Below are positions 1,159 through 25,476 of a DNA stretch of 64,000 nucleotides, in pieces. The number at the start of each line of letters is the position of its first letter. Within the stretch, counting starts at the first letter, position 1. The notes below the pieces were generated by a model. That model was not told where the DNA came from. It was given only the letters and a program-made list of their open reading frames with translations, and ran no database searches. The stretch lies in assembly GCA_009694025.1 (NCBI GenBank), contig SHVZ01000003.1, positions 6,608-70,607 of the forward strand, given 5' to 3'. Origin of the DNA: Alphaproteobacteria bacterium. Its GTDB lineage: Bacteria; Pseudomonadota; Alphaproteobacteria; SHVZ01. Made by a program: the position numbers and the translations under genes.

Positions 1159-2807
1159 CCGACCGTCTCGTCGTTGCCCTCGCCCAGGTCAACCCGACCG
1201 TAGGCGATGTCGCCGGCAACCGAGACAGGCTGCTCGGCGCGCGCGCGGAGGCGACGGCGCTCGGCGCCGATCTGGTGGTGCCGGGCGAGCTTGCTCTGTC
1301 GGGATATCCACCGGAGGATCTGGTCCTCAAGCCGGCGTTCCTGGACTCGCTCGCGCTTGCGGTCGACGAGATCGCCCGCGCCACCGCCGATGGCGGCCCG
1401 GCGGTGCTGGTGACCACGCCCTGGCAGGTCGACGGCAAGACCTACAATGCCGCCCTCCTCGTCGACGGCGGCAAGATCGTCGCCACCCGTCTCAAGCACG
1501 ACCTGCCGAACTACGGGGTCTTCGATGAGAAGCGGGTCTTCGCCGCCGGACCGATGCCCGGCCCGGTCGCGTTCCGCGGCGTCCGCCTCGGCGTGATGAT
1601 CTGCGAGGACATGTGGGGCCCGGACGTGGCGGAGACCCTGGAGGAGTCCGGTGCCGAGCTCCTGATCGTGCCCAATGGATCGCCGTTCGAGCACGAGAAG
1701 CAGGACCAGCGCCTCAATCTCGCGGTCGCCAGGGTGGTCGAGTGCGGCTTGCCGCTGATCTATGTCAACCAGGTCGGCGGCCAGGACGAGATCGTCTTCG
1801 ACGGCGGGTCCTTCGTCGTCGGGGCGGACCGGCACCTGAAGGCGCAGCTTCCGGCCTGGCGCGAATGCGTCCGTCCGGTCGTCTTCCGCCGCGACGGCGG
1901 AACCTGGGCCGCGGAAGGCGAGGTCGCCCGGGTCGCCAACGGTCATGAGTCGATCTACCAGGCGATGGTCCTGGGGTTGCGCGACTATGTCGAGAAGAAC
2001 CGCTTCCCCGGTGTCATCCTCGGCCTCTCAGGCGGCATCGACTCAGCACTCTCCGCGGCGGTCGCCGTCGATGCGCTGGGCTCCGACCGGGTCAGGGCGG
2101 TGATGATGCCGTCGCCCTATACCGGCCGCGACAGCCTGGAGGACGCGGCCGAGGTCGCACGCCTCCTCGGCATCCGCCTCGACACGGTGTCGATCGAGCC
2201 GGCGATGGGCGCTTTCGATGGGATGCTGAAGCCGCTGTTCGAGGGCAGGCCGCCCGACATCACCGAGGAGAACCTGCAGAGCCGGGCCCGCGGCGTCACG
2301 CTGATGGCGATCTCCAACAAGCTCGGCCACATGGTTCTGTCGACCGGCAACAAGTCGGAGATGTCGGTCGGCTACGCCACGCTCTATGGCGACATGTGCG
2401 GCGGCTACGCCGTGCTCAAGGACGTCTACAAGACGACCGTCTTCGAGCTCTGCCGCTGGCGGAACCAGGCGCTGCCCGAGGGCGCGAAGGGGCCGGCCGG
2501 CCGGGTGATGCCCGAGCGCGTCATCACCAAGCCGCCGTCGGCCGAGCTCAAGCCGAACCAGACCGACCAGGACACGCTGCCGCCCTACGGCGCCCTCGAC
2601 GACATCCTCTCCTGCCTGATCGAGGGCGAGATGAGGGTCGGCGACATCGTCGCCCGCGGCCACGACGAGGCGACGGTCAGGCGGGTCTGGCGCATGCTCG
2701 ACCGCGCCGAGTACAAGCGCCGCCAGGCGCCGCCGGGCGTCAAGATCACCAGCCGCGCCTTCGGCCGCGACCGCCGCTATCCGATCGTCAACGCCTTCCA
2801 GAAGTAG
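1155..2807 (+). CDS. nadE: glutamine-dependent NAD+ synthetase
   Basis: N-terminal CN-hydrolase (glutaminase) domain plus a C-terminal NAD synthetase domain with the SGGIDS PP-loop; 550 aa. The upstream extension of ORF 654..2807 is rejected because it overlaps the ykgJ-like gene. Confidence 0.9.
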
Positions 2808-2823
2808 CCGGCGGACGACGCGT

Positions 2824-4206
2824 ATGACTCTCGTTCGCTTCGCGCCGAGCCCGACCGGCCGTCTGCACGTCGGCAACGTGCGGACGGCGCTGGTCAACTG
2901 GCTGTTCGCCCGCCAGCAGGGCGGGCGCTTCCTCCTCCGCCTCGACGACACGGACACCGAGCGCTCGACGCGGGAATTCGCGCGCGGCATCGAGGAAGAC
3001 CTGGCCTGGCTCGGGCTCACCTGGGACCTCTTCGCCCGCCAGTCCGAACGGAAGCACCGCTACGCCGAGGCGGCAGACCAGCTTAGAGCGATTGGCCGTC
3101 TGTATCCCTGCTATGAGACCGAGGAAGAACTGGAAGCGCGCCGCGCTGCTCAGCGTGCTGCTCATCGTCCGCCGGTGTACGACCGTGCGGCGCTTCGATT
3201 ACAGGAAGCGGATAGGCGCCGATTGGAAGCGGAGGGGCGAAAACCACATTGGCGCTTCAAACTCAACTATCCTGAGTATGTGAATCTTTCAGACATGGGT
3301 CTGAAGGAACTTGAGGCACTCGACATATCGGAGTTCGGCTGGCGCGATCTGGTTCGCGGGATGACATTTCCAAAAGCGCATAGCATGAGCGATCCCATAC
3401 TGATTAGGTCTGACTCATCACCGGTCTACTCGATTTGTTCGGTTGTCGATGACGTCGATTTTGGCGTGACGCATGTCATCAGGGGCGAGGATCACGTTGC
3501 GAATACGACGGTCCATATCCAGATCTGCCACGCTCTTGGGTTTTCTCATCCTGAATTCGCGCACCTTCCGCTAATCGCGGGAGTCGAGGGCGAGAAGCTG
3601 TCAAAGCGAATCGATAGCCTGTCGATCGCGAGCCTCCGGGACGACGGCATCGAGCCGATGACCGTCAACAGCCTGCTCGCCCATCTCGGCACCTCCGAGG
3701 CGGTAGAGCCCTACTCTTCGCTCGACGACCTGGTCGGGCATTTCGATCTCGGTCATTTCGGTCGGGCGACGCCGAAATTCGATCCGGACGAGCTGCCCCG
3801 GCTCAACCATCGCCTGATCCAGCACCTGTCCTTCGCCGAGGTCGCGGACCGCCTGCCGGTTGGCGCCGATGAGCCGGTGTGGCTGGCGCTTCGGCCGAAC
3901 CTCGCGCGGGTTGCCGAGGCGGCCGACTGGTGGACGGTCATCCGGGGGCCGATCCGCCCGGGCATCGCCGACCCGCTCTTCGCCGAAGCCGCTGCGTCGC
4001 TGCTGCCGGCGGAGCCTTGGGACGAGGCGACCTGGGGCGCCTGGACCAAGGCGGTCGCCCAGGCGACCGGACGCAAGGGCAAGGACCTGTACCTGCCGCT
4101 CAGGCTGGCGCTCACCGCCCGCGCGCATGGACCCGAACTCAAGTCTTTGCTAGTCCTCATCGGCCGCGCGCGGGCCGAGGCGCGCCTGCTCGGAAAGGAA
4201 GCGTAA
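2824..4206 (+). CDS. gltX: glutamyl-tRNA synthetase (short GluRS/GluRS2-like form)
   Basis: [11 protein letters not shown] (HIGH-type) and KLSKR motifs are present. It contains a low-GC tract at about 3075..3625 (see findings). Confidence 0.9.
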
Positions 4207-4213
4207 CGCCGTC

Positions 4214-5593
4214 ATGGGTCTCAAGCTGCACAACACGCTCTGGCGGAAGAAGGAGGAGTTCCAGCCCCTCGATCCGAACCACGTGCGCATGTACGTGTGC
4301 GGCGTGACGGCCTACGACTTCGCCCACATCGGCAACGCGCGCCCGGTGATCGTCTTCGACGTGCTCTACGGGCTGCTGAAACGGCTCTATCCCAAGGTCA
4401 CCTACGTCCGCAACGTCACCGACATCGACGACAGGATCAACGAGCGGGCCAAGGCGAACGGCGAGACGATCCGCCAGCTCACCGAGCGAACGCTGGCGCA
4501 GTATCAGGCCGACATGGGGGCGTTGCTTGCGTTGCCGCCGGACTTCGAACCGCGGGCGACCGAGCACATCGCGGACATCATCAAAATCGCGCAGATCCTG
4601 ATCGGCAAGGGCCATGCCTACGCCGCCGAGGGCCATGTGCTGTTCAACGTGCCGTCGATGCCCGACTACGGCAAGCTCTCAGGACGCAATCGCGACGAGA
4701 TGGTCGCCGGCGCCCGAGTCGACGTGGCGCCTTACAAGCGCGATCCTGCCGACTTTGTGCTGTGGAAGCCCTCGCGCGAGGATCAGCCGGGATGGGACAG
4801 CCCCTGGGGGCGCGGCCGGCCCGGCTGGCATATCGAATGCTCTGCGATGGCAATGACTTTGCTCGGCGAAACCTTCGACATCCACGGCGGCGGCCTCGAT
4901 CTCATCTTCCCGCACCACGAGAACGAAATCGCCCAGAGCTGCTGCGCCTTCCCAGGCACCTGGCCGATGGCGCGCACCTGGATGCACAACGGCATGCTCA
5001 ATTTCGGCTCGGAGAAGATGTCGAAGTCGCTCGGCAACTTCCGCACCGTGAACGAGCTGCTGCGCGAGGCGCCGGGCGAGGCGCTCCGCTACTACATGCT
5101 GACCGGCCACTACCGCCAGCCGCTGGAATGGACCGACCAGGGCCTGAAAGAGGCGCGGGCCGGGCTCGACCGGCTCTACCAGTCCCTTCAGGGAAGCGAT
5201 GCCCCGCCGGCGAATGAGCCGCCGTTTTCGGTGATGGCCGCGCTCGAGGACGACCTCAACACCCCGCTCGCGATCTCGCACCTGCACGAGATCGCGACCT
5301 TGCTCAACAAGGCGACGGACCCGTCGGAGAGGCGCCGCCTCACGGGCGAGCTCAAGGCGGCCGGCGAGCTGCTCGGTCTCCTCAAGCAGGATGCGACCGC
5401 CTGGTTCCGCTGGCAGCCGGTCGGCGCAACGAACCTCGGCGAGGCCGAGATCGCCGGGATGATCCAGCGTCGCCTGCTGGCGCGAAAGGCCAAGAACTTC
5501 GCCGAGGCCGACCGTATCCGCGGCGAGCTCAAGGCCCAGGGCGTGGTGCTCGAGGACACCGCCGCCGGCACGACCTGGAAGCGGGCGAGCTGA
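4214..5593 (+). CDS. cysS: cysteinyl-tRNA synthetase
   Basis: CGVTAYDFAHIGNAR near the N-terminus and a KMSKS motif; 459 aa. Confidence 0.92.
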   Translation: MGLKLHNTLWRKKEEFQPLDPNHVRMYVCGVTAYDFAHIGNARPVIVFDVLYGLLKRLYPKVTYVRNVTDIDDRINERAKANGETIRQLTERTLAQYQADMGALLALPPDFEPRATEHIADIIKIAQILIGKGHAYAAEGHVLFNVPSMPDYGKLSGRNRDEMVAGARVDVAPYKRDPADFVLWKPSREDQPGWDSPWGRGRPGWHIECSAMAMTLLGETFDIHGGGLDLIFPHHENEIAQSCCAFPGTWPMARTWMHNGMLNFGSEKMSKSLGNFRTVNELLREAPGEALRYYMLTGHYRQPLEWTDQGLKEARAGLDRLYQSLQGSDAPPANEPPFSVMAALEDDLNTPLAISHLHEIATLLNKATDPSERRRLTGELKAAGELLGLLKQDATAWFRWQPVGATNLGEAEIAGMIQRRLLARKAKNFAEADRIRGELKAQGVVLEDTAAGTTWKRAS

Positions 5594-9220: not shown

Positions 9221-10087
9221 ATGAATATCGCCACCAAGCTCGATCCGCCGATCATCGGACTGATCCTGGCCTCGGCGCTGATCCATGCCTGCTGGAACGC
9301 GCTGATCAAGTCCGACACCGACCGCCTCGTCACCTTCGCGGTGGTAATGGGGGTGGGCACCGTAATCGGCATCTTCTTCGCGCCGTTCGTCGCGATCCCG
9401 CGGGCCGAGGCCTGGCCGTGGCTGCTGACCTCGGTCGTCATCCACGGCTTCTACTACTACTTTCTGCTCCAGGCCTACGCGCACGGCGATTTGAGCTACG
9501 TCTACCCGATCGCCCGCGGCCTCGGTCCGCTGCTGGTGGCGGTCTTCTCGGGGGCGCTGCTCGCCGAGCACCTGTCGTTCCGCGAGGCGATCGGCGTCGT
9601 CCTCGTCTCCGTCGGCATCGCCGGCGTCGCCTTCGGCCGCGGCCTGCCGCGCGGCATCGACTTCCGGGCGACGGCCTTCGCCGTGCTGACCGGCCTCACC
9701 ATCGCCGGATACACCGTGGTCGACGGCACCGGCGCGCGCGTCTCCGGCGACCCGCTCGCCTACATCGTCTGGCTCAACATCCTGGAGGGCCCCTGGGTAA
9801 TGATGGTGGCCCTCCAGCGCCGCGGCTGGGGTGTCGTCCGGCACCTCCGGGTGCATTGGTGGCGCGGCACCGTCGGCGGCATCATCGCCACCCTCGGCTA
9901 CGGTATCGCCATCTGGGCCTTGAGCCTCGGTGCGATGGCGCATGTGGCGGCGATCCGCGAGACCTCGGTCCTGTTCGCCACGCTGATGGGCACGTTCCTC
10001 CTCGGCGAGAGCTTCGGACGGCGGCGCATCGCCGCCGCCGCCCTCGTCGTCGTCGGCCTCCTCACCATGAACCTCAGATTCGGATGA
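9221..10087 (+). CDS. EamA/DMT-family transporter
   Basis: Ten predicted TM helices with duplicated EamA-like halves. Confidence 0.7.
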   Translation: MNIATKLDPPIIGLILASALIHACWNALIKSDTDRLVTFAVVMGVGTVIGIFFAPFVAIPRAEAWPWLLTSVVIHGFYYYFLLQAYAHGDLSYVYPIARGLGPLLVAVFSGALLAEHLSFREAIGVVLVSVGIAGVAFGRGLPRGIDFRATAFAVLTGLTIAGYTVVDGTGARVSGDPLAYIVWLNILEGPWVMMVALQRRGWGVVRHLRVHWWRGTVGGIIATLGYGIAIWALSLGAMAHVAAIRETSVLFATLMGTFLLGESFGRRRIAAAALVVVGLLTMNLRFG

Positions 10088-10091
10088 CCAG

Positions 10092-10874
10092 ATGACCGAA
10101 ATCGACCAGCGCGAGCTTGCCCTTCTCGCCATCGCCCGCGAGGCCGGCGAGCTCGCCCGGCGGCGCTTCCTCGACCGTTCGAGCTTCACCGTCAAGTTCA
10201 AGGGGCCGCAGGATTTCATCACCGAGGCCGACGGCGAGGTCGAGCGGCTGATCCTCGGCCGTCTCAGGGCCGCGTTCCCCGACGACACCCATCTCGGCGA
10301 GGAGACCGGCGGCACGCCCGGACGCCGCGCCTGGGTGATCGACCCGATCGACGGCACCGCCAACTTCGCGCGCGGCATCGCGCATTTCTGCGTGTCCATC
10401 GCCTTCGTCGAGGACGGAAAGATCCGGCTCGGCGCCATCTACCAGCCGATGACGCGCGAGATGTTCGCGGCCCGCAAAGGCCAGGGCGCCAGCCTCGACG
10501 GCCGGCCGATGAGGACCAACACGACCGCGAACATCGAGGAGGCGGCGATCGAGCTCGGCTGGTCGAAGCGACGCTCGAACAAGGACTATACCGACACCGC
10601 GCTTCGCCTGCTGGAGGCCGGGGCCAGCTTCCGGCGCTGCGCCTCGGGCGCGCTCGGCCTGGCATCGGTCGCCGACGGCCGGACCGACGCCTATTTCGAG
10701 CGCCACATCAATTCCTGGGACTGCCTCGCCGGCATCCTGATGGTGCGGGAGGCGGGCGGCTGGACCAACGACTTCCTCGCCGGAGACGGGCTGCTCAAGG
10801 GCAACCCGGTGCTCGCCACCAACGCCCCGCTGAAGGACGTGATGGCGAAGCTGGTCGAGGTCGAAAGGGGATAG
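10092..10874 (+). CDS. inositol monophosphatase-family phosphatase
   Basis: WVIDPIDGTANF and WDCLAG motifs typical of the IMPase/SuhB family. Confidence 0.8.
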   Translation: MTEIDQRELALLAIAREAGELARRRFLDRSSFTVKFKGPQDFITEADGEVERLILGRLRAAFPDDTHLGEETGGTPGRRAWVIDPIDGTANFARGIAHFCVSIAFVEDGKIRLGAIYQPMTREMFAARKGQGASLDGRPMRTNTTANIEEAAIELGWSKRRSNKDYTDTALRLLEAGASFRRCASGALGLASVADGRTDAYFERHINSWDCLAGILMVREAGGWTNDFLAGDGLLKGNPVLATNAPLKDVMAKLVEVERG

Positions 10875-10913
10875 GCTATCGTCCGACGACGAGCCAATGA
10901 TTCCGGGAAGACC

Positions 10914-12626
10914 ATGAGCAACACCGTCGACAAGGCGCCGCACGGGCTGGCGCGGGGCCTCACCAACTACGGCGACCGGGACTTCGCGCTCTATCTCCGC
11001 CGGTCCTTCGCCCGCTCGATGGGCTATTCGGACGCCATGCTGGCCCGTCCGGTGGTCGGCATCGTCGACACCTCCAGCGGGTTCAACAACTGCCACCGCC
11101 ACCTGCCGGAGCTGATCGAGGCGGTGAAGCGGGGCGTGCTGATCGCCGGCGGTCTGCCGGTCGTCTTCCCGACGATCTCGCTCGGCGAGGTGTTCCTCAC
11201 GCCCACCAGCCTCAAATACCGGAACCTCATGGCCCTCGACACCGAGGAGATGATCCGGGCCCAGCCGATGGATGCCGTGGTCGCGGTCGGCGGCTGCGAC
11301 AAGACCGTGCCGGCGCAGCTGATGGCGCTGGCCTCCGCCGGCAAGCCGGCGGTCCAGCTCCTCGCCGGGCCCATGCTCACCTCGGGCTACCGCGGCGAGC
11401 GCCTCGGGGCCTGCACCGACTGCCGGCGCTTCTGGGCTCGCTACCGGGCGGGTGAGATCGACGCCCAGGAGATCCAACGGGTCGAGGGGCAGCTCGCCAC
11501 CACCGCCGGCACCTGCGCCGTCATGGGAACGGCCTCGACCATGGCGGCGATCGCCGAGACCCTGGGCCTGGCGCTGCCGGGAACGGCGGCGATCCCGGCC
11601 GTCCATGCCGATCGTCTCCGCGCCGGCGAAGCCTCCGGGGCCGCCGCGCTCGATGCCGCCAAAATGGGCCTCACCCCGGACAAGCTGATCACCGAGAAAT
11701 CGGTCGAGAATGCGCTGACCGTGCTGCTCGCGGTCGGCGGCTCGACCAATGCCGTCCTGCATCTGGCGGCGATCGCCGGGCGCGTCGGCATCGACCTCGA
11801 CCTCAGGCGCCTGAACCAGCTCTCCGACCGGACGCCGGTCATCGTCGACCTGAAGCCGACCGGGCAGCACTATATGGAGGATCTGTTCGCCGCCGGCGGT
11901 GTCGGCGCGGTCCTGCGCGAGCTTCGGCCGCTGCTCCACCAGGAGTGCCTCACGGTCACGGGCGAGACGCTGGGTGAGCGGCTCGACCAGGGAGATGCCT
12001 GGGTCGACCGCAAGGTCGTCCGCTCGCTCGCCGATCCGTTCCTCCCCTATGGCGGGCTGGTGGCGCTGTTCGGCTCGCTCGCCCCCGGCGGCGCCATCCT
12101 CAAGCGCTCGGCTGCCGATACCCGGCTGTTCGAACGCGAGGGCCGCGCCGTCGTCTTCGACGGGCTCGAGGACCTCGCCCGCCGCATCGACGCGCCCGAC
12201 CTCGACGTCACTCCCGACGACTTCCTGGTGATGAAGGGGGCGGGGCCGACTTCGGCCGCCTGTATGCCGGAGGCGGGATACCTGCCGATCCCGACCAAGC
12301 TCGCCCGCGCCGGGGTCAAGGACATGGTCCGGATCTCCGACGCGCGGATGAGCGGCACCGCCTTCGGCGCGGTCGTCCTGCACGTGACGCCCGACGCCGC
12401 CTCCGGCGGTCCGCTCGCCAGGGTCCGCTCCGGCGACCGCATCCGACTTTCGGTCAGGGACCGCCGGCTCGACCTCCTGGTGGCGGAGGAGGAGCTGGCC
12501 CGGCGCCCGCTGCCGGGCGCCGCCCGGCCGTCGCGCGGCTACGACAAGCTCTACGCCCGCGAGATCACCCAGGCCGACAAGGGCTGCGACTTCGACTTCC
12601 TCCGGGCCTTGCCGGAGCGTCCGTGA
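10914..12626 (+). CDS. IlvD/EDD-family dehydratase (dihydroxy-acid or sugar-acid dehydratase)
   Basis: 570 aa, with CDKTVPAQLMA Fe-S ligand region and the SGTAFG C-terminal motif of the IlvD/EDD family. Confidence 0.8.
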   Translation: MSNTVDKAPHGLARGLTNYGDRDFALYLRRSFARSMGYSDAMLARPVVGIVDTSSGFNNCHRHLPELIEAVKRGVLIAGGLPVVFPTISLGEVFLTPTSLKYRNLMALDTEEMIRAQPMDAVVAVGGCDKTVPAQLMALASAGKPAVQLLAGPMLTSGYRGERLGACTDCRRFWARYRAGEIDAQEIQRVEGQLATTAGTCAVMGTASTMAAIAETLGLALPGTAAIPAVHADRLRAGEASGAAALDAAKMGLTPDKLITEKSVENALTVLLAVGGSTNAVLHLAAIAGRVGIDLDLRRLNQLSDRTPVIVDLKPTGQHYMEDLFAAGGVGAVLRELRPLLHQECLTVTGETLGERLDQGDAWVDRKVVRSLADPFLPYGGLVALFGSLAPGGAILKRSAADTRLFEREGRAVVFDGLEDLARRIDAPDLDVTPDDFLVMKGAGPTSAACMPEAGYLPIPTKLARAGVKDMVRISDARMSGTAFGAVVLHVTPDAASGGPLARVRSGDRIRLSVRDRRLDLLVAEEELARRPLPGAARPSRGYDKLYAREITQADKGCDFDFLRALPERP

Positions 12627-12724
12627 GCCGCTTTGCCGGATCATGGTGCGTCGGGGGTCGAGAACAGACAGCCAACGCCCGGTCGACGCGGATCATGCAG
12701 ACGGTCGTGACTTAGGGTAAAGGA

Positions 12725-17170: not shown

Positions 17171-18310
17171 ATGGTCCAAGAGATCGGCCGGGCCGCGCCG
17201 GACCTCGGCATCCTCCGCAAGCTCCTGCTGATGAACTGGGGCCTGATCGCGCTCGTCCTGATGATCGCCTCGATCGGCGTCGCAATCCTCTATTCGGCTG
17301 CCGGCGGCGCCTGGTCGCCCTGGGCGTCGCGCCAGCTCACCCGGCTCGCTGTCGGCCTCGTGGTGATGGTGGCGGTCGCGCTCGTCGATGTCCGGCACTG
17401 GCTCCGCTACGCCTACTTGATCTACGGCATCGCCCTGGTGCTCCTGGTGGTGGTCGACGTCATGGGCCGGGTCGGCGGCGGGGCCCAGCGCTGGCTCGAC
17501 TTCGGCTTCATCCAGCTCCAGCCCTCCGAGCTGATGAAGGTCGCCGTGGTGCTGGCGCTCGCCCGCTACTTCCACGGCCTCACCCTGGATCAGGTCGGGA
17601 AGCTGCTGATGGTGGTCCCGCCGATTCTCCTGATCGCCTTTCCGGTCGCCTTGGTGCTGCGCCAGCCGAACCTCGGCACGGCGATGCTGCTCGCCATCGG
17701 CTCGGCCGCGGTGATGTTCTCGGCCGGCGTGCGCATCTGGAAGTTCCTGCTGATCGGTGGCGCCGCCGGCGCGGCGATCCCGGTCGCCTGGTCCTTCCTC
17801 AAGGACTATCAGAAGCGCCGGGTCTATACCTTCCTCGATCCCTCCCAGGACCCGCTCGGCGCCGGCTACAACATCCTGCAGTCGAAAATCGCCCTCGGGT
17901 CAGGCGGCGTCTTCGGCAAGGGCTTCCTCAACGGGACTCAAGGCCAGCTCCGCTTCCTGCCGGAGATGCAGACCGACTTCATCTTCACCGTGCTCGCCGA
18001 GGAGTTCGGTATGGTCGGCTGCCTGGTGCTGCTCGGCCTCTACGTGCTCGTGCTCATCTACGGCTTCGCCATCGCCGTCCGCGCCCGCAGCCAGTTCGGC
18101 CGCCTGGTCGCCATCGGTATCACCACGCAGCTCTTCCTCTATGTCTTCATCAACATGGCGATGGTGATGGGGCTGGTGCCGATCGTTGGAATCCCGCTGC
18201 CGCTGGTCAGCTATGGCGGCACCGCCATGCTTACCCTGCTCGCCGGCGCCGGCTTGTTGCTCTCGGTCTCGATCCATCGCGACGTCGAGATCCCGCGCTG
18301 GCACGGCTGA
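17171..18310 (+). CDS. rodA: SEDS-family peptidoglycan glycosyltransferase RodA
   Basis: FtsW/RodA/SpoVE family: 379 aa, 10 TM helices, and an SYGGT motif near the C-terminus. Confidence 0.85.
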   Translation: MVQEIGRAAPDLGILRKLLLMNWGLIALVLMIASIGVAILYSAAGGAWSPWASRQLTRLAVGLVVMVAVALVDVRHWLRYAYLIYGIALVLLVVVDVMGRVGGGAQRWLDFGFIQLQPSELMKVAVVLALARYFHGLTLDQVGKLLMVVPPILLIAFPVALVLRQPNLGTAMLLAIGSAAVMFSAGVRIWKFLLIGGAAGAAIPVAWSFLKDYQKRRVYTFLDPSQDPLGAGYNILQSKIALGSGGVFGKGFLNGTQGQLRFLPEMQTDFIFTVLAEEFGMVGCLVLLGLYVLVLIYGFAIAVRARSQFGRLVAIGITTQLFLYVFINMAMVMGLVPIVGIPLPLVSYGGTAMLTLLAGAGLLLSVSIHRDVEIPRWHG

Positions 18311-18335
18311 CCGGCGTCGGGGATGCCATCGGCGG

Positions 18336-20180
18336 TCATCTGGCGAGAACGTATCGCAGCAGCCGCGCGCCGTTCTGCCGGTCCAGGTGGTAGGTGTCGG
18401 AGAAATCCTCCTCGTCGCCGCCGAAGGCCGCCGGCGTCGACAGGTCGTGGAGGCGAACGGTTTCGGAGACGAGCGGACGGATGAGGTCGAGCACCTCCGC
18501 CTTTCGCGCCGGGTAGGTGGTCTTCTCGGCGAGAAAGTCGCCGAGCGCCCGGTGGATCGGCATGATGACGAAGTCGATGCGGATGGCGGCGGCGGTTGCG
18601 ACCCGCGCCATGTCGCGGAGATACTCCGACTGCTTCGGGCAGATGCGGTCGAAGCCGCCGTAGGCGACCGCCATCGCGTGCCGGTTCTGCTCGATGACGT
18701 CGGGGCGAAGGCCTGAAGGCTGCACCCCGGCATCGTCGCCGATCAGGTCGCCGTGCTCACCGTCGAAGCTGTAGCGCAACCCGGGGTTCCAGCCGATCAG
18801 GCGCTGGAGATTGATGCGGAGGCGTTGAAACTCGCGTTCGCCGGCTTCGCCGAGCGCCGCCAGGGCCGCCCGGTCGTCCGGCGCCAGGTACTTCACCAGG
18901 TCGGGGAAGCCGATCGAGCGCGGGTCGATGACGGTAACGTCCTTCGGCCGGAAGGCGAAGACGTCGAGACCGACGATGATTCTGCGCACTCTGTCCTGAC
19001 GGTCCAGGGCGAATCGCATGACGCAGTAGATGTCGGCGATCATCGCCATGTCGATCGCGAGGTTGAAGGCAGATATCCCGGCGGCCGCCTCGAGCTTGCC
19101 CGGAATCGTGTAGGCGGTGCTCGACCCGAGGATCAGGAGGTCGAAACGGCCGGTCGCCCCGGCGAACGACGCGAGCTTGTCGCCACGCGGGGATGCGCCT
19201 GTCTGGCGGCTTGAGGCGATGGCGCCCTGCTCGACCTCCTCGAGCAGGCGACAGATGGCGTCGACCGAATCGAAGCGGTGGAACCCGACGACGTTCGGCA
19301 GCGGCAGCCGGTCGCCGAACCGCTCGCCGAGGGCGAGGAGCAGCCGGGTGAGCGCCAGGGAATCGAGTTGTCCGCTGAGGATGAGGGAGTCATCGTCATC
19401 CGGGCAGTCGCGATCGAGCGCGACGGTTACGGCCGCTCTCACGAACGCGACCAGCGAACCGTCGGCCGCCGGCTCCGCCCGAGCCGGCCCGGAAGCCCGG
19501 GCGGCGAGCTCGGAAAGGTACCGTTGGCGGTTGAGCCGCCGGGAGATCTTTCCGGAGGTCGATTTCAACAGCCAGCCGCGATCGACGGCATGGACGGCGC
19601 GCGGGGCGACATCGAGCTGGGCCAGCAGCTCGGACGATATCCATCGCGCGAGCGCGGGGCGGTCCTCGCCGGCGATCGTCTCGGCGACGACGACGACATG
19701 CGACGTTCCGTCCTTGTCGTCGTCGACGCCGAAGGCGACCGAGCGTCCGGGAACGACCCCGGGGACCGAATCGACCACCGCCTCCAGGTCCTGCGGCAGG
19801 AGGTTGCGGCCGGCGACGATGATCATGTCGTCGGCGCGGCCAAGGACGAAGAGCTCGCCGTCCTGCATGAACCCGATGTCGCCGGTGCGCAGCTCGCCGC
19901 CGCCGAGCGCGGCCGACGTCGCCTCCGGGTTCTCGAGATATCCAGCGGTCAGCATCGAACTCGCGACCCGGATCTCGCCGACGGTGGACTCCGCGAGGCT
20001 GCGGCCGGACTCGTCGGCGATGCGGACCGTGACGCCGGCGATCGCCCGCCCCGAGGAGACCAGCGGGGTGGGCCCCGGTACGACCGAAGGTTCCGAGCCG
20101 AGACGGGTGGCATCGACACTCGCGAGCACCGGCGGTTCTCCGAGTCGCGATGACGTTACCGCAAAGGTCGCCTCGGCCAT
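18336..20180 (-). CDS. C-terminal half of a fatty acyl-AMP ligase fused to an acyl carrier domain and a roughly 290-aa SGNH/DltD-like C-terminal domain; same frame as the upstream fragment after a TAG
   Basis: Begins ...AMAEATFAVTS (the adenylation-domain hinge region). An ACP motif DDSLILSGQLDSLALTRLL follows. The C-terminal domain carries ILGSST and a terminal D-T-Y-H (DxxH) motif. Confidence 0.7.
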   Translation of the reverse strand: MAEATFAVTSSRLGEPPVLASVDATRLGSEPSVVPGPTPLVSSGRAIAGVTVRIADESGRSLAESTVGEIRVASSMLTAGYLENPEATSAALGGGELRTGDIGFMQDGELFVLGRADDMIIVAGRNLLPQDLEAVVDSVPGVVPGRSVAFGVDDDKDGTSHVVVVAETIAGEDRPALARWISSELLAQLDVAPRAVHAVDRGWLLKSTSGKISRRLNRQRYLSELAARASGPARAEPAADGSLVAFVRAAVTVALDRDCPDDDDSLILSGQLDSLALTRLLLALGERFGDRLPLPNVVGFHRFDSVDAICRLLEEVEQGAIASSRQTGASPRGDKLASFAGATGRFDLLILGSSTAYTIPGKLEAAAGISAFNLAIDMAMIADIYCVMRFALDRQDRVRRIIVGLDVFAFRPKDVTVIDPRSIGFPDLVKYLAPDDRAALAALGEAGEREFQRLRINLQRLIGWNPGLRYSFDGEHGDLIGDDAGVQPSGLRPDVIEQNRHAMAVAYGGFDRICPKQSEYLRDMARVATAAAIRIDFVIMPIHRALGDFLAEKTTYPARKAEVLDLIRPLVSETVRLHDLSTPAAFGGDEEDFSDTYHLDRQNGARLLRYVLAR

Positions 20181-20198
20181 CGCATAGCAGGTGCCGAT

Positions 20199-21146
20199 CT
20201 AGTCGGGACGGGCGCCGAACCGGGCGAACTTCGTCAGAAACGCAGTGTGCGCCGCATGCCGGACCGGCTCGGAGCAGTTGATGAAGGCGCGGATCGATGA
20301 AAGGTCGTCCCGACCCAGGTCCGCATCCGGAACCGAGCGGACGAGATGCAGGTAGGCGAAGTTCGGTTGCCAGCACAGGCTCGGGCGATAATCCCGGATC
20401 GCTCGCGTGAGCATCGAGGGTTGGGCCACCCAGTCGAACGGCGACATGGCGGTGACCGGCGTTCCCGTCAGCAGCGGCAACATCCAGCAGGCGACCAGTC
20501 CCATGTCGTGGTAAAGCGGGAGCCAGGAGACGATCGAGTCGTCCGGGCGAAGGCCGATGGCGGCGCCGTAGAGATCGATCTGCTCCAGGCACGCCGCGTG
20601 CGAGATCATGACGCCTTTGCGGAGGCCGGTCGTACCTGAGCTGTATTGCAGGAACGCGATGTCGTCGCCTCCGCCACCTCCCTCCATGGCGAAGGAATCA
20701 GGCAGCGGGGCAAGCGCCGCCGCCTGGGTCGGGATGACCATCAGCCCGTCGGCGGACCAGACCGCTCCCTTGAGCTCGCTGCCGATGACGATGGCGTCCG
20801 GGCGAGCCGCAGGCAGCAGTGCCGCGACGATCTCGGTGAAGCGCGCTTCGGGCAGTTTCGGCGAGGGTGGCGGCAGCATCGCCGGGACGAGGCCGCCGAC
20901 GATGGCGCCGAGGAAGGCCGCGTAGCCGTCGATCGAGCTCGACACGAGAACGACGACCCGCTGCCTCGGTTTGAGGCCTCGGTCCTTGTATATCCGCGTC
21001 CACAGCGCCGCCTGCTGGAGCACGCCTGTGTAGGACAGGGCTACCTCGACGCCGTCAACCCCCAGCAGGCGCAGGAAGGTCGAATCGTCGGCGCGCCGGG
21101 CGACGTCCAGGATGCGCTCCGCCAACGAGGAGTGCTTGGCAGACAT
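20199..21146 (-). CDS. N-terminal half of a fatty acyl-AMP ligase (FAAL); terminates at an in-frame TAG 6 codons before the ATG of the downstream fragment
   Basis: LQYSSGTTGLRKGV (AMP-binding core) and WLPLYHDMGL motifs characteristic of FAALs. It is in the same reading frame as 18336..20180. Confidence 0.7.
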   Translation of the reverse strand: MSAKHSSLAERILDVARRADDSTFLRLLGVDGVEVALSYTGVLQQAALWTRIYKDRGLKPRQRVVVLVSSSIDGYAAFLGAIVGGLVPAMLPPPSPKLPEARFTEIVAALLPAARPDAIVIGSELKGAVWSADGLMVIPTQAAALAPLPDSFAMEGGGGGDDIAFLQYSSGTTGLRKGVMISHAACLEQIDLYGAAIGLRPDDSIVSWLPLYHDMGLVACWMLPLLTGTPVTAMSPFDWVAQPSMLTRAIRDYRPSLCWQPNFAYLHLVRSVPDADLGRDDLSSIRAFINCSEPVRHAAHTAFLTKFARFGARPD

Positions 21147-21202
21147 GAAGCCTTTTCCAACTGCGGATCGTCGTCGGCCGTGCTGGTGAGGCTAGCGGTA
21201 GA

Positions 21203-22456
21203 TCACGTCACCCACTTCTTCACCTGGTACTCGGGCTTCTTCCAGGCGCCCGAAGCCATGACGTCGCGGAGATGTTCGACTGCGTCCCAGATGTCGACGA
21301 AACGGACATAAGGCGCGGCGATGCCGAAGCGCACGATGTCGGGCTCGCGGAAGTCGCCGATCACCTTGCGCGCGATCAGCGCCTGCATGATCGGCCAGCC
21401 GTTCTTGTGGTGGAACGCCATCTGGCTGCCGCGGCGCTCCGGCGCGCGCGGCGTCGCCGGGGTGAAGCCGTGGCCGGCCAGCCTCTCGTCCACCAATCGC
21501 ATGAGCAACCCGGTCAGGGCGAGGGACTTGGCGCGAACGGGCTCGATGCCGGCCTCGATCAGGTCGTCGATGCCGGCCTCCATGGCGACCATCCCGAGGA
21601 TCGGCGGGGAAGAGCAGCGCCACTGCAGAATTCCCGGCGCCGGCCGGTAGTCGAGGCCGAACTCGAAGGGATTGGCGTGTCCGAGCCAGCCGGTCAGCGG
21701 CTGGCGCACCTTGTCGTGGTGACGCTTGGGCGCGAACACGAAGCCCGGCGCGCCGGGGCCTCCGTTCAGGTACTTGTAACCGCAGCCGACGGCGAAATCG
21801 GCCTGGATCTTGTTCAGCTCGATCGGCACGCAGCCGGCGGTGTGCGCGACATCCCAGATCGCCAGCGCGCCCTTGGCGTGGGCGGCGGCGGTGATCCGCG
21901 CCATGTCGTGCAGCCGGCCGGTGCGGTAGTTGATCTGTGTGCAGAAGACCACGGCGGTGTCCTCGTCGATCGCCGCCTCGACCTCGTCCTCGCCGACCAC
22001 CTTCACACGGTGCTGGCGCTCGAGGAACTCGGCCAGTCCCTGGGCCATGTAGACGTCGGTCGGGAAGTTGCCGGAATCGGTCAGGAGCGTGCGGCGCTCC
22101 GGGCGCATCAGCAGCGCCGCCGCCAGCACTTTGTGGATGTTGACCGAGGTGGTGTCGACGACGATGACCTCGCCGTCATCGGCGCCGATCAGCTTGGCGA
22201 TCTTGTCGCCGAGCTTCTCGGAGAGCGCCATCCAGCCGTCCTTGAGCCAGCCGCCGACCAGATGCTCGCCCCACTCGACGTCGAGGGTCTTGGCGACGCG
22301 GGTGGCCGCAGCCTTGGGCAGCGCGCCCAGCGAATTGCCGTCGAGATAGATGAGCCCTTCGGGCAGCCGGAAGCGATCACGGAAGGCGCGAAGCGGATCC
22401 TCCCGGTCCAGGCGCTCGCAATCGGTGCGGGTGTTGGCGGCAGGTTCAGCGGTCAT
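21203..22456 (-). CDS. kynU: kynureninase
   Basis: 417 aa, PLP-dependent, starting MTAEPAANTRTDCERLDREDPLRAFRDRFRLPEG with strong kynureninase-family resemblance throughout. The ATG at 22456 was chosen within the longer ORF. Confidence 0.8.
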   Translation of the reverse strand: MTAEPAANTRTDCERLDREDPLRAFRDRFRLPEGLIYLDGNSLGALPKAAATRVAKTLDVEWGEHLVGGWLKDGWMALSEKLGDKIAKLIGADDGEVIVVDTTSVNIHKVLAAALLMRPERRTLLTDSGNFPTDVYMAQGLAEFLERQHRVKVVGEDEVEAAIDEDTAVVFCTQINYRTGRLHDMARITAAAHAKGALAIWDVAHTAGCVPIELNKIQADFAVGCGYKYLNGGPGAPGFVFAPKRHHDKVRQPLTGWLGHANPFEFGLDYRPAPGILQWRCSSPPILGMVAMEAGIDDLIEAGIEPVRAKSLALTGLLMRLVDERLAGHGFTPATPRAPERRGSQMAFHHKNGWPIMQALIARKVIGDFREPDIVRFGIAAPYVRFVDIWDAVEHLRDVMASGAWKKPEYQVKKWVT

Positions 22457-22573
22457 GGCGGCTCCGGAAAGGGCGCGAAACTCTATCACGGCAGGCGTCC
22501 GCGGAAGGGTTGTCCGCGTTGCGTGCCCGGGCTCGCATGCTATAACCCGCCCTTGCCCCGATAACCGCCAGGG

Positions 22574-23035
22574 ATGGCCCGGCCTGTGCCCGCAACCCCC
22601 AAGATCTTGATCTTGAACGGCCCCAACCTCAACATGCTGGGGGTGCGGGAGCCTTCCGTTTACGGCCGGGATACCCTCGCCGATGTCGAGAAGCTGTGCC
22701 GCAAGACCGCTAAGAACCTCGGCCTCGCGGTCGATTTTCGCCAGTCCAACCACGAGGGCGAGCTCGTCACCTGGATCCAGGAAGCCCGGGCGAAGATGGC
22801 GGGGATCGTCATCAACGCCGGCGCCTACACCCACACCTCGGTCGCGCTCCTCGACGCGCTGACGCTCGCCGAGCTGCCGGTGATCGAGGTCCATCTCTCC
22901 AACATCTACAAGCGCGAGCCCTTTCGTCATAAATCCTACATCTCGCCGGTCGCCCGCGCCGTGCTCTGCGGCTTCGGCGCCCATGGCTATGCGTTGGCTC
23001 TCGAGGGACTTGCCCGGATGGTGAAGAAGTCATGA
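22574..23035 (+). CDS. aroQ: 3-dehydroquinate dehydratase, type II
   Basis: [14 protein letters not shown] motif, and the conserved aroQ-accB-accC gene order. Confidence 0.9.
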
Positions 23036-23481
23036 TGCGGAAGGAGCCGAAGGAGATCGACGAGGCGCTGGTGCGCCAGATGGCGCGGCTCCTGACCGAG
23101 ACCGGTCTCACCGAGATCGAGTACGCCGGCAAGGACTGGCACCTACGCGTGGTCCGCCAGCAAGCGCCGGTGGTAGCGCCGGTTGGCGCGAGCCCGGCCG
23201 CGGCGCCGGTGGCGGCGACGGTCGCCGAAAGGCGGCCGGCCGAGCAGCCCGGCGCGCTCAAGGCGCCGATGGTCGGTACCGTCTATCTCGCGCCCGAACC
23301 GGGAGCCGCCGACTTCGTCAAGGCTGGCGACAAGGTGCGCGAGGGGCAGACGGTGATGATCATCGAGGCGATGAAAGTGATGAACCCGATTCCCGCGCCC
23401 CGCTCGGGAACGATCGCCGAAATAGCCGTCACCAACGGTGAGCCGGTCGAGTACGGCCAGCTGCTCGCGGTCGTCGAGTAG
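23032..23481 (+). CDS. accB: acetyl-CoA carboxylase biotin carboxyl carrier protein
   Basis: EAMKVMN biotinylation motif in the C-terminal lipoyl-like domain. Confidence 0.92.
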
Positions 23482-23501
23482 CTCGGCCGCGGGCCCGGCC
23501 G

Positions 23502-24866
23502 ATGTTCGAGAAGGTCCTCATCGCCAACCGCGGCGAGATCGCGCTTCGCATCCATCGCGCCTGCCGCGAGATGGGCATCCAGACCGTCGCCGTGCATTCG
23601 ACCGCCGATGCCGACGCCATGCATGTCCGGCTCGCCGACGAGGCCGTCTGCATCGGCCCGCCGCCGGCGCGGGAGAGCTATCTCAACATCCCGGCGATCC
23701 TGACCGCCGCCACCATCACCAACTCGGACGCCATCCATCCAGGGGTGGGCTTCCTCGCCGAGAACGCCGGCTTCTGCGAGATGGTCGAGGAGCACGGCTT
23801 CACCTTCATCGGGCCGAGCCCCGACCACATCCGCCTGATGGGCGACAAGATCCTGGCGAAGAGGGCGATGATCGAAGCGGGCGTGCCCTGCGTCCCGGGC
23901 TCCGAGGACGCGATCCCGGCCGGACCGGAAGGCGATGCCGTGGCCCAGGGGCTCGCCGCCGGGATCGGCTTCCCGGTGATCGTCAAGGCGGCCGCAGGCG
24001 GCGGCGGCCGTGGCATGAAGGTCGCCTGGAAGGCGGGAGACCTCGACGAGGCCTTGAAGCTCGCCCGGCGCGAGGCCAAGGCGGGATTCGGCAACGACGC
24101 CGTCTACCTCGAGAAGTACCTGGCGCGCCCCCGGCACATCGAGATCCAGATCCTCGGCGACTCCTTCGGCAACGTCGTGCATCTCGGCGAGCGCGACTGC
24201 TCGATCCAGCGCCGCCACCAGAAGCTCCTGGAAGAGGCGCCGTCGCCGGCGCTCAACGCCGTCGCCCGGGCCGAGATCGGCAAGATCGCGGTCGACGCCA
24301 TGGCCAAGCTCGCCTACCGCGGCCTCGGCACCATCGAATTCCTGTACGAGGATGGGCGCTTCTACTTCATCGAGATGAATACCCGCCTCCAGGTCGAGCA
24401 CCCGATCACCGAGGCGATCACCGGCATCGACCTCGTGCGCGAGCAGATCCGCGTCGCCTCCGGCTCGCGCCTGTCCTTCGGCCAGGACGACATCCGCTTC
24501 CAGGGCCACGCCATCGAATGCCGGATCAACGCCGAGGACCCCAGGACCTTCCGGCCGTCGCCCGGCCGGATCATCGACTACCACGCGCCGGGCGGTGCCG
24601 GCGTCCGCGTCGATTCCGGCGTCTTCGCGGGTTACACGGTGCCGCCCCACTACGACAGCCTGATCGCCAAGCTGATCGTCCACGGCGCCAGCCGCAACGA
24701 GTGCCTGATGCGCCTCAAGCGCGCGCTCGGCGAATACGTGATTGGCGGCATCGACACCACGATCCCGCTGCACCAGCGGCTGATGACCGAGCCCGCCTTC
24801 CTGGACGGCCGTTACGACATCCACTGGCTCGAGGGGCTGGTCCAGGGAACCAAGCCTGCGGCATAG
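23502..24866 (+). CDS. accC: acetyl-CoA carboxylase biotin carboxylase subunit
   Basis: N-terminus MFEKVLIANRGEIALRI with an ATP-grasp fold; 454 aa. Confidence 0.95.
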   Translation: MFEKVLIANRGEIALRIHRACREMGIQTVAVHSTADADAMHVRLADEAVCIGPPPARESYLNIPAILTAATITNSDAIHPGVGFLAENAGFCEMVEEHGFTFIGPSPDHIRLMGDKILAKRAMIEAGVPCVPGSEDAIPAGPEGDAVAQGLAAGIGFPVIVKAAAGGGGRGMKVAWKAGDLDEALKLARREAKAGFGNDAVYLEKYLARPRHIEIQILGDSFGNVVHLGERDCSIQRRHQKLLEEAPSPALNAVARAEIGKIAVDAMAKLAYRGLGTIEFLYEDGRFYFIEMNTRLQVEHPITEAITGIDLVREQIRVASGSRLSFGQDDIRFQGHAIECRINAEDPRTFRPSPGRIIDYHAPGGAGVRVDSGVFAGYTVPPHYDSLIAKLIVHGASRNECLMRLKRALGEYVIGGIDTTIPLHQRLMTEPAFLDGRYDIHWLEGLVQGTKPAA

Positions 24867-24873
24867 TCGGGGA

Positions 24874-25476
24874 GTGACCGCCCCGCTCTCGCCGGAGCTC
24901 CTGCTCAAGGCCTACGCCATCGGTGTCTTTCCGATGGCCGAAGGGCGGGCCGATCCGCGCATCGTCTTCGTCGATCCCGATCGCCGGGGCGTGCTGCCGC
25001 TGGACGAGTTCCACATGCCCCGGAGCCTGAAAAAGACGATCAAGCGCTGTGTCTTCGAGGTGCGCTGCGACACCGCCTTCGCCGAGGTGCTGGCCGGCTG
25101 CGCGGCGGCGACGGCGAAGCGCAAGGACACCTGGATCAACCCGGAGATCGAGCGGCTCTACAACCAGCTCTATCGCTCAGGATTCGCCCATTCGGTCGAG
25201 ACTTGGCGGGAGGGGAGGCTGGTCGGCGGGCTCTATGGCGTTGCGCTCGGCGCCGCCTTCTTCGGCGAGAGCATGTTCAGCCGCGAGACCGACGCCAGCA
25301 AGGTCGCGCTGGCGGCCCTGGTCGAGCGCCTGAAGCGCGGCAACTTCACGCTGCTCGACACCCAGTTCCTGACCGAGCATCTCGCCCGCTTCGGCGCCCG
25401 CGAGGTTCCGCGGGAGGCCTATCGCCTGATGCTGGAGGAGGCGATCGTCCGCGACGCGGCGTTCCCTAAGGGGTGA
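24874..25476 (+). CDS. aat: leucyl/phenylalanyl-tRNA--protein transferase
   Basis: Family signature GVFPM...GESMFS; 200 aa. Confidence 0.85.
   Translation: MTAPLSPELLLKAYAIGVFPMAEGRADPRIVFVDPDRRGVLPLDEFHMPRSLKKTIKRCVFEVRCDTAFAEVLAGCAAATAKRKDTWINPEIERLYNQLYRSGFAHSVETWREGRLVGGLYGVALGAAFFGESMFSRETDASKVALAALVERLKRGNFTLLDTQFLTEHLARFGAREVPREAYRLMLEEAIVRDAAFPKG

Follow-up and report, generated by a model that had tools for sequence, protein, structure and literature searches.

An interrupted tridomain gene

Two neighboring open reading frames in the 64-kb window (the whole stretch of DNA analyzed) are the halves of one gene for a soluble tridomain enzyme of 936 amino acids, which would carry out the chemistry of three Dlt-pathway proteins (DltA, DltC, and DltD) in a single cytoplasmic polypeptide, without an MBOAT step. 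In this haplotype the gene is dead: a C>T transition has converted Gln316 (CAG) into a TAG midway through the adenylation fold. An intact, 99.7% identical allele coexists in the same metagenome assembly. We put the probability of this reading at roughly 0.72.

The two frames, 20199..21146 (315 aa) and 18336..20180 (614 aa), each begin with ATG and share one frame on the minus strand (Table 1). Their joined translation runs ...FARFGARPD*IGTCYAMAEATF..., with a lone TAG followed by six sense codons (IGTCYA) and then the ATG at 20180; read as one, the gene comes to 936 codons, plus the terminal TGA. This layout, including a length of about 936 aa, had been described in the initial annotation of this DNA and is confirmed by translation, and the motifs quoted there are all present (LQYSSGTTGLRKGV, WLPLYHDMGL, DDSLILSGQLDSLALTRLL, ILGSST, and DTYH).

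Because the Pfam AMP-binding profile aligns straight through the stop, as one continuous match over residues 32-404 (E 4.9e-44), and orthologues are colinear with the joined product from end to end, the two-ORF arrangement is, on the sequence evidence, one gene and not a chance layout. The database entries MSP47880.1 and MSP47879.1, both listed as “hypothetical proteins,” are the two parts of this recently inactivated gene.

Table 1. Coordinates of the interrupted gene, its domains, and its predicted functional residues within the window.
Feature	Position	Strand	Basis or remark
Whole gene, FAAL-ACP-SGNH-like tridomain protein	18336..21146	-	936 codons + TGA; broken at codon 316 in this haplotype
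Fatty acyl-AMP ligase (FAAL) domain, residues ~29-546	19509..21062	-	Pfam AMP-binding, NCBIfam FAAL-type models, PDB relatives
In-frame TAG, codon 316, nonsense allele of CAG (Gln)	20199..20201	-	Gln/Lys in intact relatives
ATG of downstream ORF, internal Met323 of CYAMAEAT, not a genuine start	20178..20180	-	Orthologue alignment; no Shine-Dalgarno sequence
Acyl carrier (phosphopantetheine-binding) domain, residues 569-632	19251..19442	-	Pfam PP-binding, LDS serine
Predicted attachment serine, Ser596	19359-19361	-	SGQLDSL motif
SGNH-fold, DltD-like, DUF1574-related acyl-transfer or esterase domain, residues ~650-936	18339..19199	-	
Block I, G674-S675-S676; Ser676 predicted nucleophile	19119..19127	-	Conservation in 71 homologues; directly after beta-1 in model
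Asn695, candidate oxyanion-hole residue, after beta-2	19062..19064	-	At least 90% conserved; role inferred from general SGNH architecture
Gly726, after beta-3	18969-18971	-	At least 90% conserved
Block V, D917-T-Y-H920, predicted catalytic acid and base	18387..18398	-	Conservation in 71 homologues

Nature of the stop codon

An uninterrupted 936-aa allele (P0152), 99.7% identical and differing at three positions, is encoded on a 32-kb contig of the ENA assembly ERZ1305449, in synteny identical to that of the window. It has Gln at position 316, from which its CAG codon is deduced. Of two more distant orthologues, both uninterrupted, L001 (62% identity) has Gln at this position and L002 (53% identity) has Lys. 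The initial annotation proposed a comparison with orthologues in search of an uninterrupted fusion; those found (L001, L002, P0002, P0152, L063, L065, and L068) are all single-chain, so the split is not native.

One possibility is that the TAG arose as an error in sequencing or assembly, with the organism's gene actually intact. The source of the window is a metagenome-assembled genome (MAG), and the 99.7%-identical intact version occurs within the same ENA assembly, both of which would fit an error. The identical TAG, however, is present in three assemblies made with different pipelines, although their read sets may overlap: the NCBI MAG, a second, 23-kb contig of ERZ1305449, and a contig (L060) of Logan SRR8561391. 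The Logan contig is identical to the window at 4878 of 4879 bases and differs at base 20781, so these are not copies of one consensus; similarly, the intact allele has two more amino-acid differences, at residues 158 and ~908, and is therefore a separate haplotype and not a corrected version of the window. Substitution errors in a consensus are also rare at good coverage. An error is, on balance, improbable.

Alternatively, the gene might be functionally split, either with the 315-aa and ~600-aa products reassembling or with the carrier-SGNH part acting alone and being loaded in trans. Proteins consisting of just these last two domains do occur naturally (P0006, P0016, and P0036), and a GGAG lies ~8 nt upstream of a GTG at 20129 that other gene callers have picked as the start (P0153, 597 aa). 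One argument against a functional split is the position of the break, which is not at a domain boundary: it falls inside the N-terminal subdomain of the adenylation fold, with Met323 of the invariant YAMAEAT following seven codons later, and would leave the YSSGTTG P-loop on a different chain from the rest of the active site. Another is that every orthologue, including the 99.7% allele, is a single chain. Finally, a Shine-Dalgarno sequence was looked for upstream of the ATG at 20180 and none was found, as the initial annotation had stated, and residues Y321, A322, M323, A324, and E325 around this ATG are invariant across orthologues. A functional split is accordingly given very little weight.

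As a further possibility, the TAG could be decoded, by readthrough, as pyrrolysine, or as a reassigned codon, to give a full-length protein. A related gene (L064) does contain another in-frame TAG of independent origin, at the codon where SWLPLYHDMG has its invariant Trp. Against decoding, five well-supported neighbors in the window (the CinA, Ldh2, Kup, BCCP, and AccC genes) use TAG as their ordinary terminator, so the codon is not reassigned; the residues lost to the two in-frame TAGs differ (Gln/Lys and Trp), as would be expected of random C:G>T:A nonsense mutations (CAG>TAG, TGG>TAG); a third lineage (L066/L067) is broken by a frameshift instead; and no pyl genes are found among the annotated ORFs of the window. 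Decoding of the TAG seems scarcely credible.

The evidence favors a strain-level CAG>TAG nonsense allele that is genuine and of recent origin, over either a native split or recoding, because the AMP-binding match spans the TAG, intact relatives have Gln or Lys at this position, the same TAG is seen in three assemblies, and TAG is a normal stop codon nearby. Of the three options that had been offered for the stop, recent pseudogenization is thus the one favored, by the intact allele and by the repeated recovery of the TAG. Counting L064 and L066/L067, the fusion gene has apparently been inactivated in 3 of ~9 lineages.

Adenylation and carrier domains

The N-terminal region scores 151 bits against PF00501 (cutoff 29.9), with YSSGTTG P-loop and YGxAE core motifs visible; the stop falls just N-terminal to the core motif, here YAMAEAT. 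NCBIfam FAAL-type models span residues 29-546 with 236-281 bits, all under their curated cutoffs. The top matches in a PDB sequence search are FAALs (7r7e, 198.7 bits; 3kxw, 187.6; 3pbk, 176.1; and FadD23/32/28), with the acyl-CoA synthetase FadD13 at 88 bits. As the closest solved relatives are all FAALs, the original FAAL call holds; since the NCBIfam scores are under the curated cutoffs, this part is, as far as profile matches go, a FAAL-like protein and not a named equivalog. Loading of a carrier would be the expected reaction of the domain, given the ACP fused to it.

The acyl-carrier assignment made at the same time also stands. The PP-binding (PF00550) match of the window protein itself is under the 20.8-bit cutoff (17.8 bits, E 0.004), but homologous fusions exceed it (P0003, 21.1 bits; P0005, 24.6; P0013, 23.3; and P0031, 22.6), and D595, S596, and L597 of the SGQLDSLAL stretch, which include the predicted attachment serine, are invariant in three full-length orthologues.

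The C-terminal domain

The C-terminal domain had been annotated as SGNH/DltD/AlgX-like, with the proviso that a different fold lacking a catalytic triad would speak against this. An AF2 model (pLDDT 89, pTM 0.89) has the three-layer alpha/beta/alpha SGNH fold, and the putative triad residues are highly conserved. In domain numbering, G34 and S36 are invariant in 71 homologues and S35 is at least 90% conserved, with strand E30-34 preceding this motif in the model; in the same set H280 does not vary and D277 reaches at least 90% conservation, and both are invariant in close orthologues. The conserved Asn and Gly blocks run in reverse order compared to canonical SGNH (GDSL) enzymes. In structural comparisons the domain aligns over the greatest length with transferases: DltD, over 227-228 residues, and also PatB and OatA.

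Sequence-based comparisons place the domain less directly. Pfam and NCBIfam searches with the window domain gave no match, including none to a Pfam SGNH model. The DltD profile (PF04914) does not match it either, and matches just one of the 71 homologues (E 0.03). PDB sequence searches, with the domain and with a 73-sequence profile, gave chance matches only and did not retrieve DltD, so the link to DltD is a structural one only. The closest sequence family is DUF1574 (PF07611, SGNH clan), which matches 29 of the 71 homologues (best E 3.3e-10) and leaves the window domain and its close orthologues unmatched; the two are probably related as sister groups. DUF1574 is uncharacterized, with no known function or structure (PMC9487903), and this relationship therefore gives a superfamily placement but no function.

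Homologues and gene neighborhoods

A word-index homology search with the C-terminal domain found nothing; an exhaustive HMMER scan recovered its family, with 411 homologues. In the set of the 150 top-ranking cluster representatives, standalone proteins with a TM anchor account for 92, and fusions in which the domain follows a FAAL, with or without an ACP, for ~40. Those standalone relatives that could be placed adjoin MBOAT and FAAL genes, and in three loci (L011, L015, and L016) the genes are contiguous as FAAL>ACP>SGNH-like>MBOAT, an order matching that of the fusion. The MBOAT-adjacent protein in a further locus (L006) matches DUF1574. The fusion itself has no TM segment, and no hydrophobic anchor between its ACP and SGNH domains; searches of the window and of 12 fusion loci turned up no MBOAT gene.

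Some relatives have a more suggestive context. One of the carrier-SGNH didomain proteins (P0016) overlaps an FkbH gene, encoding an alternative ACP loader, in an exopolysaccharide locus, which supports coupling of the carrier to the C-terminal domain. Two fusions (P0013 and P0008) lie within nonulosonic-acid clusters, with NeuB, CMP-transferase, and PseG-like genes. Membership of the window copy in a local Dlt-like or sugar cluster was considered and rejected, because searches of the window for MBOAT and for nonulosonic-acid genes were both negative. The neighbors of this gene and of its close orthologues are unrelated and not conserved (kynureninase and RodA; an M24 peptidase and GlyQS; an MFS protein; a plasmid-like contig). 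The kynureninase gene is 56 nt upstream of the window gene, whose neighborhood contains no PKS or NRPS genes.

Literature searches in which FAAL or acyl-AMP ligase was paired with SGNH, GDSL, DltD, or MBOAT turned up no publication describing the fusion architecture.

Comparison with known systems and proposed function

The Dlt pathway, which D-alanylates teichoic acids, consists of the adenylation enzyme DltA, the carrier DltC, the MBOAT protein DltB, the SGNH transferase DltD, and DltX. The fusion differs from it in having a fatty acyl-AMP ligase in place of a D-Ala ligase, and in combining three soluble functions in one chain. It also lacks the N-terminal membrane anchor and the neighboring MBOAT gene, both of which its standalone relatives have. 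Its SGNH domain must act in the cytoplasm, presumably taking the acyl group directly from the carrier, which DltD is not known to do (PMC12148441).

Other MBOAT-SGNH pairs, such as PatA/PatB in peptidoglycan O-acetylation, AlgI/AlgJ/AlgX in alginate modification, and WssH/WssI in cellulose modification, use acetyl-CoA as donor and are extracytoplasmic, with neither an adenylation enzyme nor a carrier (PMC12148441). The fusion, in contrast, has activation and carrier domains of its own and no MBOAT. Its first two domains are of the same type as FAAL-ACP loading modules (FadD32/Pks13, or the cyanobacterial olefin synthase FAAL, PDB 7r7e), in which an ACP directly follows the FAAL; 7r7e, the best solved relative, is deposited as “Polyketide synthase.” Unlike polyketide or lipopeptide FAAL-ACP modules, however, the downstream partner here has an SGNH fold, and is not a ketosynthase or condensation domain. 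The gene is most readily viewed as derived by fusion from Dlt-like FAAL/ACP/SGNH/MBOAT operons, with the MBOAT missing, and not as something without relatives.

In the intact enzyme, the FAAL domain would adenylate a carboxylic acid (a fatty acid or a hydroxy acid being the likeliest substrate) and load it as a thioester onto the phosphopantetheine arm of the fused carrier, at Ser596. The DltD-like SGNH domain would then take the acyl group onto Ser676, with His920 as the base and Asp917 as the acid, and hand it to a hydroxyl or amine acceptor. The initial annotation had offered an envelope polymer or lipid as an example of what might be modified. The acceptor may be a sugar or glycan: this is suggested by the distant relatives in nonulosonic-acid and exopolysaccharide clusters, there being no such association for this clade. 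In the Dlt paradigm, DltD gets its acyl group outside the cell from a tyrosine ester; the carrier thioester is not its donor (PMC12148441). Transfer straight from the ACP to the SGNH domain would thus be a novel reaction for this branch.

A different role for the SGNH domain, as a hydrolytic release domain (a thioesterase like E. coli TesA) or an esterase that merely releases or edits the acyl group, is conceivable, if unlikely. ATP-dependent activation followed by mere hydrolysis would amount to a futile cycle, and it is to transferases that the domain has its longest structural alignments. Standalone members of the family partner MBOAT acyltransferases, as in the Dlt, Pat, and Alg transfer systems (PMC12148441), and the two fusions found in sugar-biosynthesis operons are there without another acyltransferase candidate for unusual acyl groups. 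We infer direct transfer from the ACP to the SGNH domain, and transferase rather than hydrolase action.

Implications

Extending this to the family is more tentative, and we would rate the following at a little under even odds. FAAL-ACP-SGNH fusions may make up a separate class of acyltransferases that are soluble, depend on a carrier protein, and work without an MBOAT. Their SGNH serine would be charged straight from the phosphopantetheine thioester, and the acyl groups transferred would be unusual ones (fatty or hydroxy). These would go to acceptors in the cytoplasm, for example nonulosonic acids in nucleotide-activated form, or other precursors of glycans or lipids. Such a class would go back to a Dlt-like FAAL-ACP-SGNH-MBOAT operon in which the first three genes became fused and the membrane step was lost; the apparent repeated inactivation of the gene in wild populations may mean that it is frequently counter-selected.

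In current models of bacterial MBOAT-SGNH acylation, the SGNH enzyme is outside the membrane and is fed by the MBOAT protein. If the proposal is correct, a soluble protein uniting activator, carrier, and DltD-like domain would show that the SGNH branch can be fed by a carrier thioester within the cell, and would provide a one-gene, readily reconstituted system for studying the carrier-to-SGNH step; the intact allele P0152 is available for such experiments. Because two fusions occur in NeuB/CMP-transferase clusters and a carrier-SGNH didomain protein is paired with FkbH in an exopolysaccharide locus, these proteins would also be candidates for the enzymes behind the unusual acyl decorations, so far poorly explained, that nonulosonic acids and exopolysaccharides carry.

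Tridomain gene and its interrupting stop

Two same-frame reading frames on the minus strand, parted by a single TAG, had been proposed in an initial annotation to form one FAAL-ACP-SGNH-like gene, and both their layout (see table) and their continuous translation agree with this. Reading through gives ...FARFGARPD, the stop, and IGTCYAMAEATF...; the TAG at 20199-20201 (codon 316) is the sole break, and the joined product of 936 aa contains all the motifs then quoted. Both halves are annotated as hypothetical proteins in the NCBI MAG (MSP47880.1, MSP47879.1).

Open reading frames of the tridomain gene and of its upstream neighbor (window positions)
Feature	Position	Strand	Length	Remarks
Upstream half	20199..21146	minus	315 aa	frame shared with 18336..20180
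Downstream half	18336..20180	minus	614 aa	frame shared with 20199..21146
Kynureninase ORF	21203-22984	minus	593 aa as listed	over-extended

One possibility is that the gene is natively split. As first noted, no Shine-Dalgarno sequence was found before the ATG at 20180; this ATG is Met323, within the conserved adenylation motif CYAMAEAT. Pfam AMP-binding gives one unbroken alignment over residues 32-404, through codon 316, so that the break lies inside a fold and not at a domain boundary. The uninterrupted fusion that had been sought among relatives exists: orthologues L001 and L002, from species-representative genomes (62 and 53% identity), are full-length, with Gln and Lys, respectively, at the TAG position, and a cluster look-up found an uninterrupted 936-aa protein, P0152, with three differences from the window product, Gln316 being one. 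The broken fold and these three intact proteins make a native split very unlikely.

The P0152 gene comes from a 32-kb contig in ENA assembly ERZ1305449 that has the synteny of the window (kynureninase, tridomain gene, RodA, CinA, Ldh_2, Kup); a 23-kb contig of the same assembly carries the split version (315 + 597 aa). The same TAG is found in a Logan assembly contig (L060, run SRR8561391) that is identical to window 17960-22838 at 4878 of 4879 positions. The single other difference, at 20781, is synonymous (third position of Gly122, GGC/GGT); the assemblies are therefore not copies of a single consensus. Sequencing error, another of the explanations originally offered, is unlikely given the TAG in both the 23-kb and the Logan contigs. 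Recoding of TAG is very unlikely, since five genes near the tridomain gene end in it as an ordinary terminator. Because the AMP-binding domain spans the stop, the orthologues and P0152 are intact, the TAG recurs in assemblies and TAG terminates normally, we conclude that the stop is a real CAG>TAG nonsense allele coexisting with an intact one. It represents a very recent pseudogenisation, one of the options first listed, or a strain polymorphism.

Other lineages also carry broken copies. At locus L064 (SXGR01568062.1), an in-frame TAG at 1346-1348 stands where SWLPLYHDMG has its invariant Trp (TGG>TAG), between same-frame ORFs 692-1345 and 1349-3541 (SGNH-like domain ~52% identical); to judge by sequence, this nonsense mutation is independent of that in the window, which lies at another site. 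Loci L067 and L066 (SXGU01005340.1 and SXGR01049477.1, respectively) are 100% identical across 2759 bp and carry the same frameshift, seemingly a 2-nt deletion at L067:6860-6880 in ...CAACGTTGTTTCC..., which splits the SGNH domain of the tridomain gene. Inactivating lesions thus occur in three of about nine fusion lineages with DNA (the window, L064 and L066/L067). This exceeds the expectation for assembly error and may point to frequent loss of function in nature.

Domains and family architecture

NCBIfam FAAL-type models span residues 29-546, and the best solved relatives of this part are all FAALs (7r7e, 3kxw, 3pbk, FadD23/32/28), acyl-CoA synthetases scoring far lower. The ACP part has a weak, below-cutoff Pfam PP-binding match (17.8 bits); homologous fusions pass that cutoff, and Ser596, in the motif SGQLDSL, is invariant among orthologues. 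The C-terminal domain matched nothing in Pfam, NCBIfam or PDB sequences, and a word-index search with it found no homologue; an exhaustive HMMER scan found 411. In a 71-sequence alignment of these Gly674, Ser676 and His920 are invariant and Lys657, Ser675, Asn695, Gly726 and Asp917 are conserved at ≥90%; 29 of the 71 match Lipase_GDSL_2, and 29 match DUF1574, for which neither function nor structure is known (PMC9487903). AlphaFold models the domain with confidence (pLDDT 89, pTM 0.89). Residue conservation and model support the SGNH/DltD-like assignment made earlier at the level of fold; membership in the Pfam DltD family is not supported.

Of the 150 top-ranking cluster representatives (50% identity) of the C-terminal-domain homologues, 92 stand alone, at ~350 aa, and carry a hydrophobic anchor at the N-terminus; a further 40, of about 940-1400 aa, have the fusion layout FAAL(-ACP)-SGNH-like, and a few are ACP-SGNH-like didomains. 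The standalone genes adjoin MBOAT and FAAL genes: all three occur together at L006 (4951-9618), the SGNH-like gene is followed by MBOAT at L062, and MBOAT is adjacent in 12 FAAL-matched loci. Myxococcota MAGs have contiguous FAAL > ACP > SGNH-like > MBOAT operons (L011:3662-8476, L015:5029-9596, L016:4993-9570), in the domain order of the fusion; rearranged loci occur in Omnitrophota and Acidobacteria (L006:4951-9618, L007:2401-6702). These operons share the four-part architecture of Dlt, namely adenylation enzyme, carrier, MBOAT and SGNH (PMC12148441), except that the adenylation enzyme is a fatty acyl-AMP ligase. No MBOAT was found in the 64-kb window or at 12 fusion loci, and the fusion protein has no membrane segment; these features make the fusion look like a cytoplasmic derivative from which the membrane step has been lost.

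TPR domains are fused to some tridomain proteins (C-terminal in P0013, N-terminal in P0031), and two TPR protein genes lie directly upstream of the L068 tridomain gene (L068:193-3937).

Literature searches combining FAAL or acyl-AMP ligase with SGNH, GDSL, DltD or MBOAT found no paper on the fusion architecture, and none was found on the four-gene Dlt-like system. Existing database names are "hypothetical protein" or "fatty-acyl-CoA synthase".

Possible substrates and acceptors

A gap of 56 nt separates the tridomain gene from the end of the kynureninase ORF, which lies upstream in the same orientation, making co-transcription, and an aryl acid (anthranilate) as substrate, possible. TIGR01814 matches residues 189-576 of the kynureninase ORF, for which 417 aa are called in other assemblies. 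L001 and L002 do not share this adjacency; in the window and at the close orthologues the neighbors of the gene are unrelated. Long ORFs at 10074-12644 (-), 23283-24908 (-) and 21272-22564 (+) were rejected as genes, being antisense to the well-supported IlvD, AccC and kynureninase genes and without family matches; such shadow ORFs are typical of 68% GC DNA.

More distant fusions have other surroundings. The P0013 operon (L072:745-11443) encodes a cytidylyltransferase, a pyruvyl transferase, a NeuB/PseI-like synthase, a PseG-like protein and a GT4-TPR glycosyltransferase; P0008 (L075:2201-13089) separates a group of genes for Maf, aminotransferase, NeuB, Hexapep-DegT and CTP_transf_3 from one for a GFO_IDH oxidoreductase. 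By gene content, both are nonulosonic-acid-type clusters. The P0030 gene is downstream of DegT, SDR and methyltransferase genes. The ACP-SGNH-like didomain P0016 (L061:8001-10918; GCA_017849585.1, JAFIGT010000013.1) overlaps by 7 nt an FkbH-domain gene, whose product we take to be of the glyceryl-ACP loader type; with PrsK/PrsR-like regulators, an EpsL-like outer-membrane protein and a Wzz/ParA kinase, L061 looks like a PEP-CTERM-type exopolysaccharide locus. These four contexts suggest that sugars or glycans are acylated, the window's own clade giving no acceptor clue, and functional coupling of carrier and SGNH domains is supported whichever enzyme loads the carrier.

Of the tridomain genes that are not orthologues, the closest is P0002 (946 aa; L059:1-11837, ENA ERZ27280297 k141_94855). 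Its contig carries resolvase, RepA_C and Prim-Pol genes and resembles a plasmid or mobile element, which suggests that the tridomain gene can move horizontally as a single unit.

Proposed mechanism

Folds and residue conservation are consistent with a scheme in which the FAAL domain would adenylate an acid, which would form an acyl thioester on the Ser596-Ppant of the carrier, pass to Ser676 as an acyl intermediate (His920 and Asp917 taking part) and finally be transferred to an acceptor. The direct carrier-to-SGNH step, transferase rather than hydrolase action, and the substrate are all putative. The TAG allele is predicted to be incapable of adenylation, because it would place the P-loop and the YAMAEAT/C-terminal halves on separate chains. 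We rate the tridomain fusion as a variant of Dlt-like, carrier-dependent SGNH acylation, a function that we infer, and the window copy as a dead allele.
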